Shown piece after piece: positions 19,206-37,614 of a stretch of 64,000 nucleotides of DNA. The position numbers and the translations under genes were made by a program. Numbering within the stretch: the first letter of the stretch is position 1; the number at the start of each line of letters is the position of its first letter. This DNA comes from a virus (Duplodnaviria; Heunggongvirae; Uroviricota; Caudoviricetes; Schitoviridae): IMG/VR virus record IMGVR_UViG_2595698411_000001, positions 37,241 to 101,240 of that record. The stretch is one strand, 5' to 3'. The notes beneath the pieces are model-generated. The model did not search any database and had not been told where the DNA came from. It saw only the letters and a program-made list of their open reading frames with translations.

Positions 19206-19563
19206 ATATTCAGGCTTTATAAACGGCACCTGCCAGCCTTTTGTTTTTAAACCTCACGGCTCCGACGGATGGAAGAAATTTTATCTGGGGACTGAGTTCA
19301 TTGCCCTTCTAGTACCTCCTACTTATAAACCTGGTTGGTCTGTAATAGTAAATGATGTAGAAGATTCACATCAAACTCCCACGCTAGTTGAAGGTTTCGT
19401 GTCTAGACACGCAGCTATCGATTACGCATTAAAAGTATGTGTGAAGACAAGAGACACGTACAACCGTGACCGTGCAGACCACATCGCTACTAAAGCGTTT
19501 TTAGAAGAAAAGGCAAAAGCTGATGAAAAACAAAAACGTTTACGACAAAAAAAGCAGCCATGA
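19198..19563 (+). CDS. hypothetical protein
   Basis: 121-aa ORF. Confidence 0.5.
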   Translation: MSKYSGFINGTCQPFVFKPHGSDGWKKFYLGTEFIALLVPPTYKPGWSVIVNDVEDSHQTPTLVEGFVSRHAAIDYALKVCVKTRDTYNRDRADHIATKAFLEEKAKADEKQKRLRQKKQP

Positions 19564-19972
19564 CGCTCCAATAACAGACACAGAAAAACAAGTCCTTGAT
19601 CTGGTGGTCAAAGGCTTTAGCGGCAAAGAGATGGCCGATAAGCTTTTTGTCTCAGAAGCAACAATCAAATTCCATTTAAACACTATCCGTAAAAAGAAAG
19701 GGTTTACAAAAACTAGTCAACTTATTGCCTGGTACTACATGGGTACTCAGCGTTATCTAGAGTCTCGCAGTCCTTGGAACATAGGACAAGAACTTAAAGT
19801 GGTTAAGCACGACTGTACACCTTCTTCTCAAATAGACGGCGAGATTGTTACAGTGGCCCGTGCTTACCCCGACGGTATCGCAGACACCAAAAACAGGCTT
19901 TATCTTAATAAAGAGCTGAAAGAGGTAGATCATGACAGATCAAGTACAACAACTGAAGGCGCAACTGTCTAA
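19523..19972 (+). CDS. LuxR/GerE-type HTH transcriptional regulator
   Basis: TDTEKQVLDLVVKGFSGKEMADKLFVSEATIKFHLNTIRKKKGFTKTSQLIAW matches the LuxR C-terminal HTH pattern (LTxREx..L...G.S.KEIA..L.IS..TVK.H..NI..K...R.Q). Confidence 0.55.
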   Translation: MKNKNVYDKKSSHDAPITDTEKQVLDLVVKGFSGKEMADKLFVSEATIKFHLNTIRKKKGFTKTSQLIAWYYMGTQRYLESRSPWNIGQELKVVKHDCTPSSQIDGEIVTVARAYPDGIADTKNRLYLNKELKEVDHDRSSTTTEGATV

Positions 19973-20301: not shown

Positions 20302-20564
20302 CAACAATCATACTTACTATGTCTGTTACTATTCTTCTTCTTTTCTTTGCTTGTGTGGCTCTAGTTCTCTGTTTAACGTCTCTTGACGCCAAAAAAGCTG
20401 TACTTTTTAAACGAGCAGAAGATCTAGAAAACCGAATAGAGGCTATGCAGCAATTGGTCTGGAAAAAGTTTAATTACCATCTATTTACAACTTCGCAGCG
20501 CCTAGAAATAGAGCTTATGAAAGTACAGGAAGAAAAAGATGCGCAACGACCAAAACACCCCTGA
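20298..20564 (+). CDS. small membrane protein (N-terminal TM)
   Basis: MTTIILTMSVTILLLFFACVALVLCL hydrophobic N-terminus. Confidence 0.45.
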   Translation: MTTIILTMSVTILLLFFACVALVLCLTSLDAKKAVLFKRAEDLENRIEAMQQLVWKKFNYHLFTTSQRLEIELMKVQEEKDAQRPKHP

Positions 20565-20733
20565 AGAATCACTTTAAATTGTTCTTACATAGCGTTTGCC
20601 CCTCCAGCATACAAGTGGCACGTAACCATACCGGCTAATGGGCAACTAACTATTAGCTACACCTCAGAGCTTAACTGGTGGGTCAGAATGTGGATGCGTT
20701 TTATCGGCTGGAAAGCAGTAAAGGATAAAAACC

Positions 20734-21018
20734 ATGAACGAAGAAACTGAAACAAAGTGGACACATTTTACGATTTCTCATAACCGTTGCCGTTTACTCG
20801 AAAACAGGCCTGATAAACAAGGTAATATGCCTATTGAAGTAGAGCACTACGGATATGAAGTAGTAAAATTTGACTCTCTCAGACATATTGATCCTAAACT
20901 GGGGCAGCGTGATGTCGATACGCTTCAACAATTCTATTCTTGGTGTATAAGTAACGGAAAAGCATTGAACGTACGCGTTACAGTGCAACAATACATTGAC
21001 CTACACGGTGTAAAATGA
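20734..21018 (+). CDS. hypothetical protein
   Basis: 94-aa ORF. Confidence 0.5.
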   Translation: MNEETETKWTHFTISHNRCRLLENRPDKQGNMPIEVEHYGYEVVKFDSLRHIDPKLGQRDVDTLQQFYSWCISNGKALNVRVTVQQYIDLHGVK

Positions 21019-21329
21019 ATCAAACACACTCTAGTTGCCAGATAAGCAGACTCACGCAGCAACTAAAAGAGTCCAAAAAACGGGAAGCAGAGCTGCACAA
21101 ACGGTGCTTAGAGCTCATACAAGAAGCCCAAACTAAAGACTCTATACCTGCAAAAGACTTAAACATTTTTACAGCAGAAAAACAAACCGAAGCTATAAAA
21201 GTGTTTTTAGAAGTATTCGTAGAAACATGTACAGAGCACAAAATACCAAGATCTGACCCTACCCTCAGAATACTGAAGAAAACCGCTGACAAAGTTGTAC
21301 ACACGCTGCAAAAACGTTTAGGCCACTAG
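21015..21329 (+). CDS. hypothetical protein
   Basis: 104-aa ORF. Confidence 0.5.
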   Translation: MNQTHSSCQISRLTQQLKESKKREAELHKRCLELIQEAQTKDSIPAKDLNIFTAEKQTEAIKVFLEVFVETCTEHKIPRSDPTLRILKKTADKVVHTLQKRLGH

Positions 21330-21331
21330 TT

Positions 21332-21520
21332 ATGGACTCTCTTAAACTAGAAGATCAAGTATCTGCCCTAAAAAGTTTTATTCTTAGACAAAACCCTCCC
21401 TGCCCCGACGCCCCTCAGCATCTTTCTGACTACTGCGACATGACGCATGTATGCCATGTCTGTAAAGCTCGCGTAAAAGCTGTGAAGTATATTGAAGAAA
21501 CCACAGGTAAAAACCTTTAA
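21332..21520 (+). CDS. small Cys-rich protein
   Basis: 62 aa with CPDAP...CDMTHVCHVCKARV. Confidence 0.4.
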   Translation: MDSLKLEDQVSALKSFILRQNPPCPDAPQHLSDYCDMTHVCHVCKARVKAVKYIEETTGKNL

Positions 21521-21529
21521 GGACTTTTT

Positions 21530-22018
21530 ATGAGCAACGCATACATACCAGACCAACTACACCACATGAGCAAGAAAGAATTGCTAGAATTTGCACAGAC
21601 AGCGCATGGAGAGAATGTGAAGTTAATGCAACAACTAGCAAAGGCTAATGAGCGTGTGAGGGAGTTAGAGAAAAGAAGCTCGCCACTGCTTAAAACCGAG
21701 GACGGGCTACACAGTAAAGAAAGTTGTGACGCTGCAATGATAGGGCAGTTACGCAATCAATTAGCAAAAGCTAATGAGCGTGTGAAGGAATTGACTAAAG
21801 AAAACCTATCAATTGTTAATGGGGTAAATAAATACACATTTGATGATGTGAAAGTAGATTTTGTAGCAGAATTAAACAAATTCGCCATAGAGCAGAAGAT
21901 TGAGGCGTTTAACGAGTGGCTATATGAGGTTAAATATATGGAAGGCGTTAGCGCTAGAGACCTCGTTGATTCAGCGGTTGAGTTTTTAGAACAACTACGC
22001 AAGGAGCAATTAAAGTGA
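21530..22018 (+). CDS. coiled-coil paralog 1 (C-terminal ...EQLRKEQLK; internal QLAKANERV(R/K)EL repeat)
   Basis: 162 aa. An internal ~30-nt direct repeat lies at about 21640 and 21765. Confidence 0.55.
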   Translation: MSNAYIPDQLHHMSKKELLEFAQTAHGENVKLMQQLAKANERVRELEKRSSPLLKTEDGLHSKESCDAAMIGQLRNQLAKANERVKELTKENLSIVNGVNKYTFDDVKVDFVAELNKFAIEQKIEAFNEWLYEVKYMEGVSARDLVDSAVEFLEQLRKEQLK

Positions 22019-22234
22019 AGCGCATAGCCAATCTTATAATCAGCTCATCAATTCCGCTTATGCCTGCGGCTTCATTTGAAGACATAGAGCCATTAAAGCC
22101 AGAAGAGCTGGCTGGCACTAAGTTCAGCAAAGATGGTGAAATTCGCGGTAAGCGCAGTAAGGGCGATAGAAAGCGTAACCCGCGTTGGAGTAGACAATGA
22201 GTTCCAGCGGAGCAACTACTCGAGGAGCAAGAGC

Positions 22235-22459
22235 ATGTCTAGGTTCTATAAAGTAACTAAGCGCATTTACTCAAATGACTTGAAAGTAACTGAGCATCCC
22301 GATGGTAATTGGGTAAAACGTGAGGAATACGAACAGCTAAAACAGCGCTGCGCGGAGTTAGATGAAATAGCCGACACAGCTTTTAAATACAACCATTCAA
22401 GCGCACAATGTTTACGCGCTTGGAGGAAGTTGCAACAACTACGCAAGGAGCAAGAGTAA
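22235..22459 (+). CDS. coiled-coil paralog 2 (C-terminal ...QQLRKEQE)
   Basis: Trimmed to the ATG giving MSRFYKVTK.... Ends with the shared tail motif. Confidence 0.45.
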   Translation: MSRFYKVTKRIYSNDLKVTEHPDGNWVKREEYEQLKQRCAELDEIADTAFKYNHSSAQCLRAWRKLQQLRKEQE

Positions 22460-22737
22460 TGGAATGGGAACTAGTAAAAGAACTGGTACGCCTTAACAAC
22501 CAAGGCAAAACAGAAGAAATTAATAAGTTTGTCGCAGAAACTGACTTTAAAGACATGGATCAACTAAAATCAGTAGCGATAACTTGCTTTTCATTGACAA
22601 AAGAAAATGTCGCGCAAAACTTAGAAGCAGCCGAAAAACTGGCAAGTTTTGAGTATACAGGTTTTAGGGAAATGTTTAGAGGCGGTTATGTAAAAGACCT
22701 TGTAGAGCAATTACGAAAGGAGCAATCCAGTGACTAA
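22459..22737 (+). CDS. paralog 3 (C-terminal ...EQLRKEQSSD)
   Basis: ATG at 22459 (MEWELVKEL...) preceded by AAGGAGCAAGAGTA. Confidence 0.5.
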   Translation: MEWELVKELVRLNNQGKTEEINKFVAETDFKDMDQLKSVAITCFSLTKENVAQNLEAAEKLASFEYTGFREMFRGGYVKDLVEQLRKEQSSD

Positions 22738-23500
22738 ACCAAATTTTACCCCAGATGCGCACTCTATGAAAATGGAGATCAGCAAGCTGAAAAAGCAACT
22801 GGCAAAAGCTGACGAATATGCAGCAGAATTAGAGGTTAAAAAAGATGCTCTGCAAAAGTCATTAGACGAGTGCGCTTCAAAACTAGCTGTAAAGAACACG
22901 TCTTCAAAAGAGTCTTTGGAAAACTGTACCGAAAAACTTTTAAAACTATCAGAAAATCTAGCAAAAGCTAACCAAACCATAACAGCACTAGAATCAGAGA
23001 CCGACAAACGCGAAAAAGTGTTAAAACGCAAAATCGAAGCCGAGCGGTTTAAAAAAGAAGAGTTTGTTCGATGGGTAGATACACTTATCGAAGAACAAAA
23101 AGAACTACGCGAGCAGCGTTTTCGTGCGTTTGGTAACGAAGAGTACCTAATATTCTTCGACAATGGCGAAGACTACCCAGATTCTATGGTAGCTCCTGTC
23201 GTTATGAGCGCTGATAAGTTTAGAGAGCTTCATTACGCTAGGGCGCAACTAGCAGAAACTAACGAAAAGCTGGCAGTACTTGAAAAAACGGATAGTATTT
23301 TTAGTTCCGGCGCTAATTTTGATTTTGACGATTTGACCAGTTATTTCCCTGAAGAGCTAGACAAATTTGCTAAAGACCAGCAAATAAAAGCACTTGAGTT
23401 TATCCTAGGAAGAGTTGAGTCAGTGACCGTAAGTCACGCTGTAAAAGACCACATAGTCCATCGTATAAAACAACTGCGCAAGGGTAACAGTGATGCTTAA
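22730..23500 (+). CDS. coiled-coil paralog 4 (C-terminal ...KQLRKGNSDA)
   Basis: 256 aa with a GTG start preceded by AAGGAGCAATCCA. Contains QLAKADEY and NLAKANQT repeats. Confidence 0.55.
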   Translation: MTKPNFTPDAHSMKMEISKLKKQLAKADEYAAELEVKKDALQKSLDECASKLAVKNTSSKESLENCTEKLLKLSENLAKANQTITALESETDKREKVLKRKIEAERFKKEEFVRWVDTLIEEQKELREQRFRAFGNEEYLIFFDNGEDYPDSMVAPVVMSADKFRELHYARAQLAETNEKLAVLEKTDSIFSSGANFDFDDLTSYFPEELDKFAKDQQIKALEFILGRVESVTVSHAVKDHIVHRIKQLRKGNSDA

Positions 23501-23518
23501 AGCTATATGACAAGAATG

Positions 23519-23540
23519 AACCTACTTATGTAGGTTTTGG
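23519..23540 (+). terminator. putative terminator hairpin
   Basis: AACCTAC-ttat-GTAGGTT followed by a weak TTGGGTG tract. Confidence 0.35.
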
Positions 23541-23739
23541 GTGTGGCTTTGTTAGTTTATGCGGTTAAAACGCTACGCACTGGATAGACCTAGGAAACTT
23601 CAGTGTTACGGAAAAGTTAGTTCGATACGATCACAAAGTCACACACCAAAACTTATACCTTTAAAAGGCGCAAAAGCTAACGATTTTCCTGTCTCTAAGT
23701 AAAGCTTGTTCGGGAAAAGTATAAAAATAAGGATTAGCC

Positions 23740-24015
23740 ATGAATACACGATTTTGGGAAGCTGTAAGACACCTAGCTAACGAAAAAATTAAAAAGCAGT
23801 ACATGAAAAAAACAGGACATGATCGAAAGTGCCCTAACTGCAATACATGGATTAGCGAAGTAGGTGGTGCCGCTTCTGTCGACTATGCCGACGAAGATTG
23901 GTTAGAGTTTATGAAATGCCGGCAATGCGGTTACAAGTCTCTCTGGGATTTAAGAGGCATGATACCTGACCTCTACAAACACCAAAACCCTCATACACCA
24001 AAGGTGAAAAAATGA
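23740..24015 (+). CDS. zinc-ribbon protein
   Basis: CPNC...CRQC pair of CxxC motifs; 91 aa. Confidence 0.5.
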   Translation: MNTRFWEAVRHLANEKIKKQYMKKTGHDRKCPNCNTWISEVGGAASVDYADEDWLEFMKCRQCGYKSLWDLRGMIPDLYKHQNPHTPKVKK

Positions 24016-24478
24016 AAGCTATCGATCTCAGTTTTTGGCGTTTCGTAATTATTATTTACCTGTCTCGTTCTTTTTTATGGAAAAAAGACGATGACACGTT
24101 TCTTTTTCATATAGGCACCTTTTCAAAAGGCCCTTATACAGCACTAAGATTAATACTCCTTCCTTTAAGTCTGTGTGTAGGCTACATAACCCCAAAGAGG
24201 TATTAAAATAACTATTTACCCTGCAAGCATAACGTTTGCTTTATTTCCTAAGGAACCGCAGTGATGAAAACTTTTTCTATCAAACAAGGCATCTACGAAA
24301 AGAAGTTCTTTTACATAGAAATTTCTTATCTGGGTGTCCCGTGGAGCAAAGAACGCGTGATCAGGGGCTGTATCGCAGGCTCAATTAGCGAAATATTAAG
24401 GTTTGACTCTGTTAAAGCTGCTTGTAACTATATTAAAGAGAAGTATGGTACGTCAGCCGTTATTAAGCCGAGTTTCTG

Positions 24479-24940
24479 ATGTCTGTTATAGATGATCTTC
24501 CAAGAGCTATTGAAATAGCCAAAACTCTTCCTTTTTTCAATTTTGTCCTATACGCCGTTTGCGTCATAGCATTGGCCTGCGCAGCGCTTGCAATAATTAG
24601 CTTTATTGAAGCGGCGGTAGGGCATTTCAAACAACTAGGTACTCCTATGAAGATAGAGCACACCCGAACACAAGGCTTTGATAAAAGCCCTGCAGGCACC
24701 AGTTGGTGGACGGTTTCACATAACAACCAGCAATACGTAGTAAAACAAGATGTATCTGCATCAGGCCATCCTCACGCTTATCAGTTAGTACCAGACTACA
24801 ACCCTACAGCAGTTCCTATAAAAGTACGGCTGCAAGGCAACAGCGCTATAGTAGATGCGGCTAATGCTAACTTTATTGACATTACTTTAGCTGTTTCTTT
24901 AGCCATGTTTATCAAAGAAGAGACAAGTAAATCATCATGA
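24479..24940 (+). CDS. membrane protein
   Basis: 153 aa with TM helix FFNFVLYAVCVIALACAALAIISFI. Confidence 0.5.
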   Translation: MSVIDDLPRAIEIAKTLPFFNFVLYAVCVIALACAALAIISFIEAAVGHFKQLGTPMKIEHTRTQGFDKSPAGTSWWTVSHNNQQYVVKQDVSASGHPHAYQLVPDYNPTAVPIKVRLQGNSAIVDAANANFIDITLAVSLAMFIKEETSKSS

Positions 24941-35352: not shown

Positions 35353-37614
35353 ATGAGCATGTTGACCCAGACTAAAGAACTTCTTACTAAAGAAGGCGCT
35401 TTTTCTGGTGAGCAGAACAAACACCTTCAAAGTGTTATTGAAGCTATCAGTTTTCCTACCATCGACCCAAAGATGAAAGCCGTTATTGCAGTTTCTCAAA
35501 TTACGTCTTTCGCTAGCCAGTTTCGTAGAAACATCAAGTTGTGGGATGACCATACAGAAGTTCCTATTAATGCGATATCGTTTGTGATCACGGGCTCCGG
35601 TGCAGGTAAAGATTCTTCAGTTAAAGCCGCCAGAAAGTGCTTTACAAGCGGGTATAAAGTCTTAGAAGGCAAAGCAATGGAAGCTGCTGTAAAAGAAGCT
35701 ATTGCCCAAGCCAAAGAAGAGGGTTTACCTAACCCGCAAGACGAAGCGATTTACAAACCGTACCTTAAGCCAGTGCCTCCAGTAGACATTATGCCTACTA
35801 CAGGTCCTGGCCTTATCCAGCACATCAACGACATTGGCGACGTAGGTGTAGGCGCTGGCATCATGTACTCTGGCGAGTTTTCAGATGAACTGGCGTACAA
35901 CCAAGATATGGTCGAAAACATTAAGACCTTATCCGAAATTTATGACACTGGCGACAAAGAGGTAAAATATACCAAGTCGGCAGAGTTCCGCTCAAAAGCA
36001 ATTGCTGGCCAGCCAGTATCTGCCCTTTTCGTAGGTTCGCCAGGCCATATCCTTTACGATGAAGGTACCAAGAAAAAATTCCATATCGCTTTTATGTCAA
36101 AACTAGCTCGTCGTAGCTGGTTCTGTTACGCAGCTGACAAAATTGAAGAACAGGTTTTTGACACGCTTGAAGAATTTTGGGAGTACGAAGAAGAGATTGA
36201 AACTAGGTCTAAGCACGCTCGCCTTGCTATGGACACTCTAGTTAAAGAAATCGCTAAATACCATGCAAAGCACATCGGTAAAGAGATCGCTGTATCTAAA
36301 AGCGTTGAGCGCCTTTATAAGACATACAAGCGCTATAACAACGACCTAGCTGACTTGCTGCCAAACCAAGACTCAACGTATGCGCTTATTCGCCGCCACT
36401 TGCAGTGGAAAGCTCTTAAACTGGCAGGTGCGTTTGCTATCATGGAAAAAGAAGATGAAGTGACCCCAGAGCACTACATTGAAGCTATCCGTTTTTGCGA
36501 AATACTAGACAAAGACATGGAAGAGTTCGAGCGCGACCTAAACAAAGCGCCTCACGAATTGCTCGTAGATTTCTTCCATACTAAGACACTAGTTGACGGT
36601 AAATCAGAAATCAGTACTCATGACCTCAAAAAACAAGGTTTCATGAATAACGTTTCTAACACCAAGCTAAAAGAAATGGTAGCTCTGTGCGCAGGTTACG
36701 ACCAAAACTCAGTGTACTCTGTCATAAACGACGGTTCTGCTATTCACTACGAACCTATTGTTAAAACAGACGTTATTAACGTTACGTACAAAGAGATCGA
36801 TACGTCTCAACTTAACGCTGCAGTCGAATCAGGTGACTTTAATGCTATCCGTCAGGCTAAGCATAATATCGCCTCTACGACAAACTACGGCTTTGAAGCA
36901 GCAGACACTTCGTTTGACGAACTGCCTCAATTATTGGCAGGCGACTACGCGTTTTCTCCGTACCGTTTTAAAGACGGTGTACGCAGAAAAGAAAACTTAG
37001 AGTCTGGTACTAAATGGGTTGTTCTAGACATAGACGACTCTCCGCTTTCAGCAGAAGAAGCGCATTTTATGTTAGGTGACATTAATCACCACATAGCGCT
37101 AACAAGCGATAAAGACAACAACTTCAAGTTCCGTGTCCTTCTTGAGCTAGACTCTGAAGTTTATTTGGACCCAGCCGCGTGGAAGCATTTCTACCTCAAG
37201 ATTGCAGATGATCTAGGTCTAAGAGCCGATCCGTTGCCTCAGTCTCAGATCTTCTACTCTTACGCAGGTAGAGACGTTTACAGCAACACCGAGTCAAGCC
37301 CTCTACCAACTAGGGACTACTTGATGTACGCAAAAGACATGGCTACTGACAAAGAGACTGCCGGCCGTGTTATGACGAACGCACAACGCCGAGCCCAGCT
37401 TAACGATCCTACAACTACTTTCGAGTACGCGTTTGAGGCTAAGTTTGGTGAAGGTTCTCGTTCCATGTACCGCATGATGCGTCATGCTCAAGACTTAGGT
37501 GCAGACCTCGATGAAGTTCTTCAGTTACTTGAAGACGTTAACGACTACTGGGAGTCACCCATGCCAGAAGAACGCCTTGAAAAACTTCGTGATCAAGGTA
37601 GGCGCTTATTTTAA
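35353..37614 (+). CDS. large replication-associated protein (N-terminal P-loop-like segment; possible primase/helicase)
   Basis: 753 aa. ISFVITGSGAGKDSS is P-loop-like. The C-terminal region has acidic VVLDIDDSP-type motifs. The assignment is weak. Confidence 0.35.
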   Translation: MSMLTQTKELLTKEGAFSGEQNKHLQSVIEAISFPTIDPKMKAVIAVSQITSFASQFRRNIKLWDDHTEVPINAISFVITGSGAGKDSSVKAARKCFTSGYKVLEGKAMEAAVKEAIAQAKEEGLPNPQDEAIYKPYLKPVPPVDIMPTTGPGLIQHINDIGDVGVGAGIMYSGEFSDELAYNQDMVENIKTLSEIYDTGDKEVKYTKSAEFRSKAIAGQPVSALFVGSPGHILYDEGTKKKFHIAFMSKLARRSWFCYAADKIEEQVFDTLEEFWEYEEEIETRSKHARLAMDTLVKEIAKYHAKHIGKEIAVSKSVERLYKTYKRYNNDLADLLPNQDSTYALIRRHLQWKALKLAGAFAIMEKEDEVTPEHYIEAIRFCEILDKDMEEFERDLNKAPHELLVDFFHTKTLVDGKSEISTHDLKKQGFMNNVSNTKLKEMVALCAGYDQNSVYSVINDGSAIHYEPIVKTDVINVTYKEIDTSQLNAAVESGDFNAIRQAKHNIASTTNYGFEAADTSFDELPQLLAGDYAFSPYRFKDGVRRKENLESGTKWVVLDIDDSPLSAEEAHFMLGDINHHIALTSDKDNNFKFRVLLELDSEVYLDPAAWKHFYLKIADDLGLRADPLPQSQIFYSYAGRDVYSNTESSPLPTRDYLMYAKDMATDKETAGRVMTNAQRRAQLNDPTTTFEYAFEAKFGEGSRSMYRMMRHAQDLGADLDEVLQLLEDVNDYWESPMPEERLEKLRDQGRRLF

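Follow-up and report, generated by a model that had tools for sequence, protein, structure and literature searches.

The window analysed here is a 64,000-nucleotide (nt) stretch of the IMG/VR virus record IMGVR_UViG_2595698411_000001 (positions 37,241 to 101,240 of that record), in which several small genes meet at copies of one short junction sequence, named J3. Between 21300 and 23800 the window was 100% identical to the Alteromonas phages vB_AmaP_AD45-P1 (NC_021532) and AD45-P2, and only 70% of this interval was matched by the sister phages AD45-P3 and P4 (AD45-P1 and AD45-P3 are called P1 and P3 below). The AD45-P1 record has a portal gene and genes similar to gp57, gp59, gp68 and gp69 of N4, marking the phage as N4-like. 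N4-like phages are lytic. The region with the junctions sits within a long series of small + strand genes without assigned function. RefSeq labels the products of its genes A, C, D and E (gp106, gp105, gp104 and gp103) as hypothetical proteins. These end in ...EQLRKEQLK (A), ...QQLRKEQE (C), ...EQLRKEQSSD (D) and ...KQLRKGNSDA (E), each followed by the stop codon, as read in the original prediction, which had been made from the sequence alone. It had counted four consecutive open reading frames (ORFs); a fifth, the putative ORF B, begins at the GTG that follows gene A. Two further conserved motifs, the in-frame linkers J1 and J2, lie inside gene A (Table 1).

The 18-mer CAACTACGCAAGGAGCAA was found exactly twice in the window, at 21992-22009 and 22436-22453 (first placed at 21988 and 22433), and with two mismatches at 22213 and 22708. 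The copy at 22708-22725, CAATTACGAAAGGAGCAA, had been recognized from 22707 on, and both of its differences are synonymous. All three copies claimed were real, but the fourth, decayed one at 22213 had been overlooked. At three or fewer mismatches, the four matches compare with 0.05 expected from shuffles, and 0 of 100 shuffles reached four, rejecting a chance origin in the window. AAGGAG had been proposed as the Shine-Dalgarno sequence of the next gene, and this stood: it lies 8, 8 and 7 nt before GTG 22015, ATG 22459 and GTG 22730, giving spacers of 7–8 nt. All three starts overlap with the stop of the preceding gene, the GTG of B with the TGA of A (22016-22018) and the ATG of D with the TAA of C (22457-22459). 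The four copies lie in the small-gene block 21992-22725. None was found elsewhere in the window, nor in positions 1-37300 of the AD45-P1 record, which hold the structural genes.

Two junctions have decayed. The copy at 22213 lies in the frame of B, just past B's TGA stop (...RQ-stop-VPAEQLLEEQEHV-stop), and its GAGGAG is the Shine-Dalgarno sequence for gene C, 7 nt before ATG 22235. A premature stop in the upstream gene of a junction would give this picture. The terminal junction of E, identical in AD45-P3, has kept QLRK, but AAGGGT stands in place of its Shine-Dalgarno core, and it is followed by no gene start. Both patterns fit a ribosome-binding role, since the junction without a next gene lost its Shine-Dalgarno sequence, and the untranslated copy at 22213 lost the peptide codons and kept GAGGAG.

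Table 1 Genes, junction copies and linkers in the array region of the window.
Feature	Position	Strand	Description
gp108	21015..21329	+	J1-like and J2-like motifs; ends ...HTLQKRLGH-stop, without junction tail
Gene A (gp106)	21530..22018	+	162 aa; mosaic, all-helical (predicted): N-terminal module, two J1 copies, J2, J3 tail
J1 copy 1	21632..21657	+	CAACTAGCAAAGGCTAATGAGCGTGT, encodes QLAKANERV; left boundary of the P1/P3 replacement
J1 copy 2	21758..21783	+	CAATTAGCAAAAGCTAATGAGCGTGT
J2	21872..21901	+	TTAAACAAATTCGCCATAGAGCAGAAGATT, encodes LNKFAIEQKI
Junction J3-1	21989..22018	+	GAA + 18-mer (21992-22009) + TTAAAGTGA; AAGGAG 22001-22006
ORF B (putative)	22015..22200	+	61 aa; GTG start; unannotated in RefSeq
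Decayed junction copy	22213..22237	+	CAACTACTCGAGGAGCAA + GAGCATG; GAGGAG 22222-22227
Gene C (gp105)	22235..22459	+	74 aa; only the tail in common with A and E
Junction J3-2	22433..22461	+	CAA + 18-mer (22436-22453) + GAGTAATG; AAGGAG 22445-22450
Gene D (gp104)	22459..22737	+	92 aa; ORFan; only the tail in common with A and E
Junction J3-3	22705..22737	+	GAG + CAATTACGAAAGGAGCAA (22708-22725) + TCCAGTGACTAA; AAGGAG 22717-22722
Gene E (gp103)	22730..23500	+	256 aa; paralogue of A; J1-like at 22796, 22955, 23246; J2-like 23357-23386
Terminal decayed junction	23471..23500	+	CAACTGCGCAAGGGTAAC...TAA, encodes KQLRKGNSDA-stop

The original prediction read the array as one cassette duplicated into four paralogous genes for coiled-coil proteins. 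Paralogy held for A and E, which aligned with z = 8.8 (Smith-Waterman against shuffles), and with z = 7.9 minus the last 10 residues. It failed for C and D, which scored z < 2 against all others once the last 10 residues were removed and thus share only the tail. The QLAKA..E repeats said to be common to the four proteins were likewise restricted to A and E. Both genes belong to phrog_19342, and D to phrog_24319, all of unassigned function, while C has no family. C and D have neither J1 nor J2 and fall outside the A/E family. By profile alignment (hhalign against the family alignment A2, probability 75%, E = 2.5e-5, across the J1 and J2 motifs), gp108 is probably a diverged third member of this helical family. 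Tandem duplication, with the 18-mer as the best-preserved remnant of diverging copies, would suit A, E and probably gp108. It is very improbable for the array, in which the 18-mer is 100% identical in A and C and the rest of both genes unalignable; moreover, dozens of other phages have this junction at the end of unrelated genes.

This wider distribution was seen in 31 viral contigs, retrieved through peptide patterns and thus free of codon bias, together with the isolates PT11-V19, P24, PT11-V22 and R22Y. In these 323 kb there were 86 matches at three or fewer mismatches, all on the gene strand, nearly all at the 3' end of an ORF and in the same frame, the tail being read almost always as ...EQLRKEQ(E)-stop. 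The original prediction would have been weakened by a motif missing from other arrays, which was not what we found. Several tailed ORFs stand in series in these arrays, with a maximum of seven in 2.1 kb (locus L014), and most are unrelated to A. The tail ends zinc-ribbon proteins, membrane proteins, a C5 DNA methylase (in degenerate form) and an HNH_3/NUMOD4 endonuclease. Residues past KEQ vary freely (E, EK, SND, DSE, EHG, DHEKTKS...), following the start layout of the next gene. The element was found in isolated Alteromonas phages of unlike morphotype and lifestyle, among them an N4-like podovirus, PT11-V22 (a myovirus) and P24, which carries an integrase.

The exact 18-mer was present in 53 contig stretches of IMG/VR and in 17 stretches of prokaryotic genomes (596 Gb). 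By our arithmetic about 17 are expected there by chance, so that single matches in unrelated taxa (Terriglobus, Arthrobacter, Ruminococcus, Legionella and similar) are probably fortuitous and were discounted. Several copies were carried by Alteromonas sp. IB21, a Thalassotalea metagenome-assembled genome (MAG) and a marine (ALOHA) gammaproteobacterial MAG (five copies). The marine MAG contigs PAPM01000040 and PAPL01000087, binned as Pseudomonadales and Verrucomicrobiales, had two each and are probably mis-binned; the Pseudomonadales one equals one of the viral contigs in length. One copy each was found in A. portus and in a Glaciecola MAG, the Glaciecola protein being also a homologue of family A. 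We regard the multi-copy matches and these two single ones as real. The junction is common to phages of Alteromonas and related marine gammaproteobacteria. One locus, L093 from a Saprospiraceae MAG, was a false positive with an unrelated tandem repeat of ~33 codons (17 instances), and was excluded from the counts.

Over 109 distinct copies the consensus was GAACAACTACGCAAGGAGCAAGAGTGATG. The conserved block ran from -2 to +26, with information at background on both flanks. The 18-mer is the core of a junction of ~29 nt, GAA-CAACTACGCAAGGAGCAA-GAGTGATG, of which close variants exist. Within this 29-mer, AAGGAG is flanked by CAACTACGC and CAAGAG bases. Codon choice was compared with background in 50 distinct copies ascertained as the peptide QLRKEQ. 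Leu was CTA in 49/50 (background 0.21), Arg CGC in 45/50 (0.25), Lys AAG in 50/50 (0.42), Glu GAG in 48/50 (0.39) and both Gln codons CAA in 48/50 (0.64). The Glu codon directly before the block served as internal control and was GAA or GAG at 77:24, like background. The need for a Shine-Dalgarno sequence can account for AAG-GAG, but not for CTA-CGC-CAA.

A functional peptide, with ...EQLRKEQE selected as a tag for a common partner or as a degradation, localisation or packaging signal and DNA identity secondary, would agree with the constant frame, with a Glu kept at -1 with free third base, and with synonymous changes being about 2-fold enriched among variants (hand tally). In family A the tail also ends a C-terminal helix that is confidently predicted. 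The CTA, CGC and CAA choices are left unexplained by such a tag, which would also have to serve unrelated proteins, enzymes and membrane proteins included, and to tolerate any residues after KEQ. The constant frame is already forced by the stop geometry: only the QLRKEQ frame cleanly meets a stop, the TGA overlapping the ATG, while the second frame would fuse to the next gene and the third would run on out of frame. The fixed frame is thus explained without a functional peptide, and we consider a tag rather improbable. Since the same 18-mer and the same codons end unrelated genes in many phages, the shared unit is a portable junction of ~29 nt conserved at the DNA level, not a duplicated gene and not primarily a peptide.

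The geometry of the next start was equally regular. In 104/109 copies an ATG or GTG opens an ORF 4–8 nt past GGAG, and in 99 of those 104 this start and the 3' end of the upstream ORF overlap. GAGTGATG is the layout seen most often, and its GTGATG encloses the TGA stop. The proposal that one sequence is both C-terminal peptide and Shine-Dalgarno sequence of the next gene was therefore upheld in its geometry, from which translational coupling would follow. No structure or hairpin was detected in the 29-mer or in the three window junctions (minimum free energy -0.5 kcal/mol, z = 0.44), no inverted repeat at the window junctions, no Rfam match in 20500-24500 at E <= 1, and no excess of promoters or terminators over shuffles (5 vs 7.0 and 4 vs 3.7 expected).

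The junction is also where relatedness breaks. When the flanks of the 109 copies were clustered (60 nt per side), 21/22 upstream clusters with several members were joined to more than one downstream cluster, and 19/21 in the reverse direction. Pairs sharing only the downstream gene had their shared tract ending at -5..+3 in 20/24 cases, and those sharing only the upstream gene at +12..+28 in 38/49. Both flanks were shared in 5 pairs and one only in 90, against 45:5 and 28:2 for control anchors placed 60–70 nt into either gene. An excess of one-sided pairs 110–150 nt upstream coincided with J2. The same pattern was shown by the isolates P1, P3, PT11-V19, R22Y and P24.

P1 and P3 exemplify such a replacement. 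Their identity is ~97% as far as J1 of gene A (~21659) and 93–100% from 22436 on, the first base of the 18-mer; the sequence in between, to 22435, is unrelated. In P3 the rest of A, B and C is replaced by one gene of 112 aa, with the N-terminus of A and J1, a CxxC zinc ribbon, and then EQLRKDQK-stop. The swap bounded by the motifs and the collapse of flank linkage at the junction agree with the earlier suggestion that recombination diversifies the region.

J1 and J2 behave as J3 does, inside genes. Gene A carries J1 twice, within an internal direct repeat that had been noticed before and that measured 46 nt at 80% identity (21621-21666 vs 21747-21792). At synonymous sites the DNA of J1 is frozen as CAA CTA GCA AAG GCT AAT GAG CGT GT (37 instances), and that of J2 as CTA AAC AAA TTC GCC ATA GAG AAG AAG; in the 34 instances of J2, AAA, TTC and GAG are invariant and GCC is found in 32/34. 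Linkage between flanks is broken at both, the ratio of both to one flank shared being 1:56 for J1 and 0:35 for J2. Neither precedes a gene start. The family of A and E (phrog_19342 / phrog_35568, without Pfam family) is a mosaic in which J1 (QLAKANERV), J2 (LNKFAIEKKIE) and J3 (EQLRKEQE-stop) are nearly invariant islands, in this order in A and E, with unalignable sequence between them. J1 (21632-21645, CAACTA-GCAAAGG) and J3 (21992-22005, CAACTACGCAAGG) have CAACTA and GCAA(A)GG in common, 1-nt indels apart, and on this similarity the two linkers may be related to each other. In a homologue of the middle segment of E (locus L031), J3 forms the end exactly where E has a J1-like motif (AREQLRKGQ vs ARAQLAETNE).

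A host or phage factor binding the 29-mer at gene starts, as DNA or mRNA, and controlling translation or transcription, with shuffling as a by-product of repetition, has been proposed in similar form for the start-associated sequences of mycobacteriophages and for L5 stoperators. Here it would be in line with nucleotide invariance reaching the 4-fold degenerate sites, with the single orientation directly before start codons, and with the restriction of the AD45-P1 copies to the small-gene region (0 in the 37-kb structural part). A LuxR/GerE-type helix-turn-helix (HTH) gene, a conceivable source of such a factor, lies near the arrays in 13/104 loci, within the DNA fetched. Phages of different morphotype and lifestyle carry the element, among them the N4-like podovirus, PT11-V22 and P24, so that the factor would have to be host-encoded or itself highly mobile. 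J1 and J2 are as frozen and as unlinked as J3 although they lie inside genes, and dyad symmetry, structure, Rfam matches and promoter or terminator signals were lacking in the searches above. We judge a binding site unlikely.

Integron-like cassettes, inserted and excised by a dedicated recombinase that recognizes the junction, would match the arrays of small genes with the same terminal repeat (up to seven copies in 2.1 kb) and their combinatorial gene order. Integron cassettes each end in an imperfect inverted repeat (attC) folding as a single-stranded hairpin, and have an integron-type tyrosine integrase next to them. In P24 the array is followed by a phage integrase. Against integron-like cassettes stand the lack of an attC-type inverted repeat or hairpin, the lack of an annotated integrase in positions 1-37300 and 52540-67040 of the AD45-P1 record, and the position of the element in frame within coding sequence, with J1 and J2 behaving alike inside genes. 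Such a system is scarcely credible here.

We favour, with a probability of about two in three, a standard junction with three roles at once, those of coding tail, translational-coupling signal and recombination linker. As coding tail, it would be read in one fixed frame by any upstream gene, whose product would end in ...EQLRKEQ(E)-stop, a tail short enough to be tolerated. As translation signal, AAGGAG would act as Shine-Dalgarno sequence for the ATG or GTG 4–8 nt on, which overlaps the stop and would couple both genes. As recombination linker, it would offer a patch of homology, identical among unrelated genes and phages, at which gene-sized modules swap. Over such patches of 26–30 nt, modules (at J3) or protein segments (at J1 and J2, the in-frame linkers where segments of the A/E family would be shuffled) could be exchanged between co-infecting phages and prophages. 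A crossover anywhere in J3 would end the upstream gene correctly and leave the downstream gene its ribosome-binding site. Because both genes stay functional, the recombinants would be viable and junction-bearing genes more transmissible, and this could in turn keep the sequence uniform. Observed were the anatomy of the junction, its frozen codons, the geometry of starts and stops, and similarity breakpoints that coincide with it; the coupling, an exchange by homologous (short-homology) recombination, and an invariance maintained by portability together with expression are added by inference.

Blocks of 26–30 nt are near the minimal efficient homology for E. coli recombination and lambda Red; for E. 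coli, Shen and Huang are said to have put this minimum, in 1986, at about 23–27 bp. Several points weigh against the standard junction. Homology of 18–29 nt is short for RecA-type recombination, and recombination alone needs no single "dialect" everywhere. The invariance of 4-fold degenerate sites (such as position 6, 109/109) could equally reflect a bound factor. Synonymous variants made up ~41% of the 18-mer variants vs ~20% expected (a hand tally and arithmetic, uncorrected for transition bias), and, with the Glu kept before the block despite its free third base, this enrichment leaves room for some selection on the peptide. The breakpoints themselves come from the comparison of sequences, mostly metagenomic contigs.

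Beyond the standard junction itself, unrelated phage families of one host group may share a "plug-and-play" standard for accessory genes, with J1, J2 and J3 invariant as recombination sockets. We put this forward tentatively and would not quite back it. If true, J3 would join any genes while keeping stop, Shine-Dalgarno sequence and start, and J1 and J2 would recombine a helical, possibly gp5.9-like anti-nuclease family into hundreds of variants. This would be a natural case of second-order selection for evolvability, as Botstein's modular theory postulated.

The function of the array proteins was addressed by family, structure and homologue searches. Pfam, PHROGs and NCBIfam gave for A–E and gp108 only coiled-coil noise and PHROGs without function. 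The search with A found 138 uncharacterised relatives, and an exhaustive profile search 420 clusters at 50% identity. An AlphaFold2 model of A consisted of four long helices, the tail ending the predicted C-terminal one (predicted local distance difference test, pLDDT, 87; predicted template modelling score, pTM, 0.39), and Foldseek returned nothing from the PDB at E < 1, only generic helical hairpins. For D only two clusters of homologues were present among 5.8 billion proteins; D being such an ORFan, a search for tail-less homologues, which might have shown the tail to be dispensable, was uninformative. C had a partial homologue with a different N-terminal half in locus L058 (representative 67).

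T7 gp5.9 inhibits RecBCD as an acidic mimic of DNA; it is dimeric and small (~52 aa). Residues 12-39 of gene E (22763-22846, the J1 coiled coil SMKMEISKLKKQLAKADEYAAELEVKKD) were identical to residues 22-49 of gp5.9 at 15/28 positions. By sequence, the only match in the PDB was a weak one to gp5.9 (chain 8b1r_P, 8B1R; E = 0.2 for gene E and 0.05 for profile A2), and phrog_9014 matched E at 7e-4 and A at 0.01. This short coiled-coil similarity is not significant alone, and the gp5.9 chain has 52 aa, whereas A and E, with 162 and 256 aa, are predicted to be multi-helix. As a lead only, anti-nuclease proteins like gp5.9 may be relatives of the J1 motif family.

Further observations concern single genes and loci. 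A protein filed under Pseudorhizobium pelagicum (P0001, on a 102-kb contig) was 100% identical to residues 13-162 of gene A; the assembly probably contains the genome of an AD45-like phage. Within E, KELREQ at 23100 was considered as a gene-fusion relic and rejected, since in the L031 homologue this stretch is likewise internal, and the junction that ends the gene lies at another place. The frame of B runs past its TGA into the decayed junction (EQLLEEQEHV-stop), suggesting a gene truncated by a nonsense mutation; its similarity to PT11-V19 gp65 was too weak (E = 0.027) to decide homology. PT11-V19 itself has an unannotated ORF of ~44 codons between gp66 and gp65 (locus L003, 3093-3227), with a GTG start just past one junction and a degenerate junction (ELSKEQE-stop) at its end, preceding gp65. 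In-frame internal copies of the 18-mer, at 5644 in L017, 4301 in L027 and 4212 in L073, look like fusions of two former cassettes; 46–52 codons are left to the stop in L017 and L027, and in L073 the Shine-Dalgarno core is mutated to AAAAAG.

Directly 3' of the stop of gene E there is a 7-bp hairpin (23518-23537, AACCTAC...GTAGGTT). It may be the terminator of the array transcript; the scan flagged the minus strand only, and the plus-strand T-run is weak. In the 240-nt intergenic region 3' of E, 117 nt (23534-23650) matched, at 86% identity, an intergenic stretch that follows the dUTPase gene in Alteromonas phage PB15, a phage with no other relation to this one. In both phages it precedes a small gene, here an HNH endonuclease (23740-24015). 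It had no Rfam match and a folding z-score of -1.95. The LuxR/GerE-type HTH gene recurs close to the arrays of unrelated phages (window 19523-19972, L006 1279-1731, L003 4024-4383). At 13/104 loci it was rejected as an obligatory neighbour. The R22Y copy of this gene bears a J2-like segment (FELEKKLEGI) and a tail-like C-terminus (KQLCEEQNK-stop).

In our reading, the junction is constrained by three codes in one sequence, those of protein, ribosome binding and recombination. It would explain the shared C-terminal peptide of unrelated ORFan proteins, a trap for homology-based clustering and annotation, and offers a ready-made design rule for gene swaps in marine phages. P1 and P3, culturable on the same host, differ by exactly one such swap. 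No paper in the literature collection searched contained the 15-mer CTACGCAAGGAGCAA (the 3' part of the 18-mer), EQLRKEQE, QLAKANERV or NKFAIEKK, and keyword searches gave nothing equivalent to the junction.

The mosaicism of phage genomes has been debated between exchange at conserved linkers (Botstein) and random illegitimate joins filtered by selection (Hendrix). Linkers or boundary sequences in modular phage evolution were reportedly treated by Susskind and Botstein in 1978, by Botstein in 1980 and by Clark and colleagues in 2001. Lambdoid linkers are few and disputed, and most lambdoid junctions look illegitimate. Like Botstein's linkers, the junction is a short conserved sequence at module boundaries that would give homology for exchange. 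It differs in the use of one sequence in over 100 copies, in the near-absence of linkage across these, and in the in-frame intragenic linkers that accompany them. The element would speak for linkers with a clarity unusual among natural cases.

The start-associated sequences (SAS) of Cluster K mycobacteriophages are described, in the passages devoted to them, as asymmetric repeats with an AGGAG Shine-Dalgarno core and further conserved bases unable to pair with 16S rRNA, to which no function was assigned (Pope et al. 2011, PMC3203893). According to the same passages they lie 3–7 bp upstream of starts, in one orientation, in 11–19 copies and in the non-structural half only, precede genes of different families and sometimes contain the upstream stop (PMC3203893). 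The junction resembles them as so described: it is asymmetric, bears a Shine-Dalgarno sequence, keeps one orientation before starts and, in AD45-P1, is confined to the non-structural region. The consensus given for SAS, 5'-GGGATAGGAGCCC, is different, as is the host, and SAS belong to one phage cluster, whereas the junction crosses podo-, myo- and temperate phages. It is also systematically translated in one frame and marks a breakpoint of relatedness, neither of which is mentioned in the SAS passages.

The promoter-early stem-loop (PeSL) cassettes of T4-type phages combine a sigma-70 promoter with a terminator hairpin and are intergenic (Arbiol et al. 2010, PMC2839356; PMC4122927). They lie between non-essential ORFans in hyperplastic regions, and recombination between copies explains indels and replacements among sister phages (PMC2839356; PMC4122927). 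Mini-circles arising by exchange of adjacent copies are a further trait of PeSL. The P1 vs P3 replacement is of the same kind. Unlike PeSL, the junction has neither promoter nor hairpin and consists of a coding tail, a ribosome-binding site and an overlapping stop and start. The stoperators of L5 and Cluster A mycobacteriophages, asymmetric repeats of ~13 bp placed along the direction of transcription at gene boundaries in the account given alongside SAS (PMC3203893), share these traits with the junction. From that account, they bind the repressor of the temperate phage itself, whereas AD45-P1 is N4-like and the element spans unrelated phages. The junction is an analogue of SAS and PeSL, not a member of either class, as it lacks their defining sequence or structure features. 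New compared with these systems are its translation in one frame, its in-frame intragenic counterparts, and its spread over unrelated phage families of one host group.

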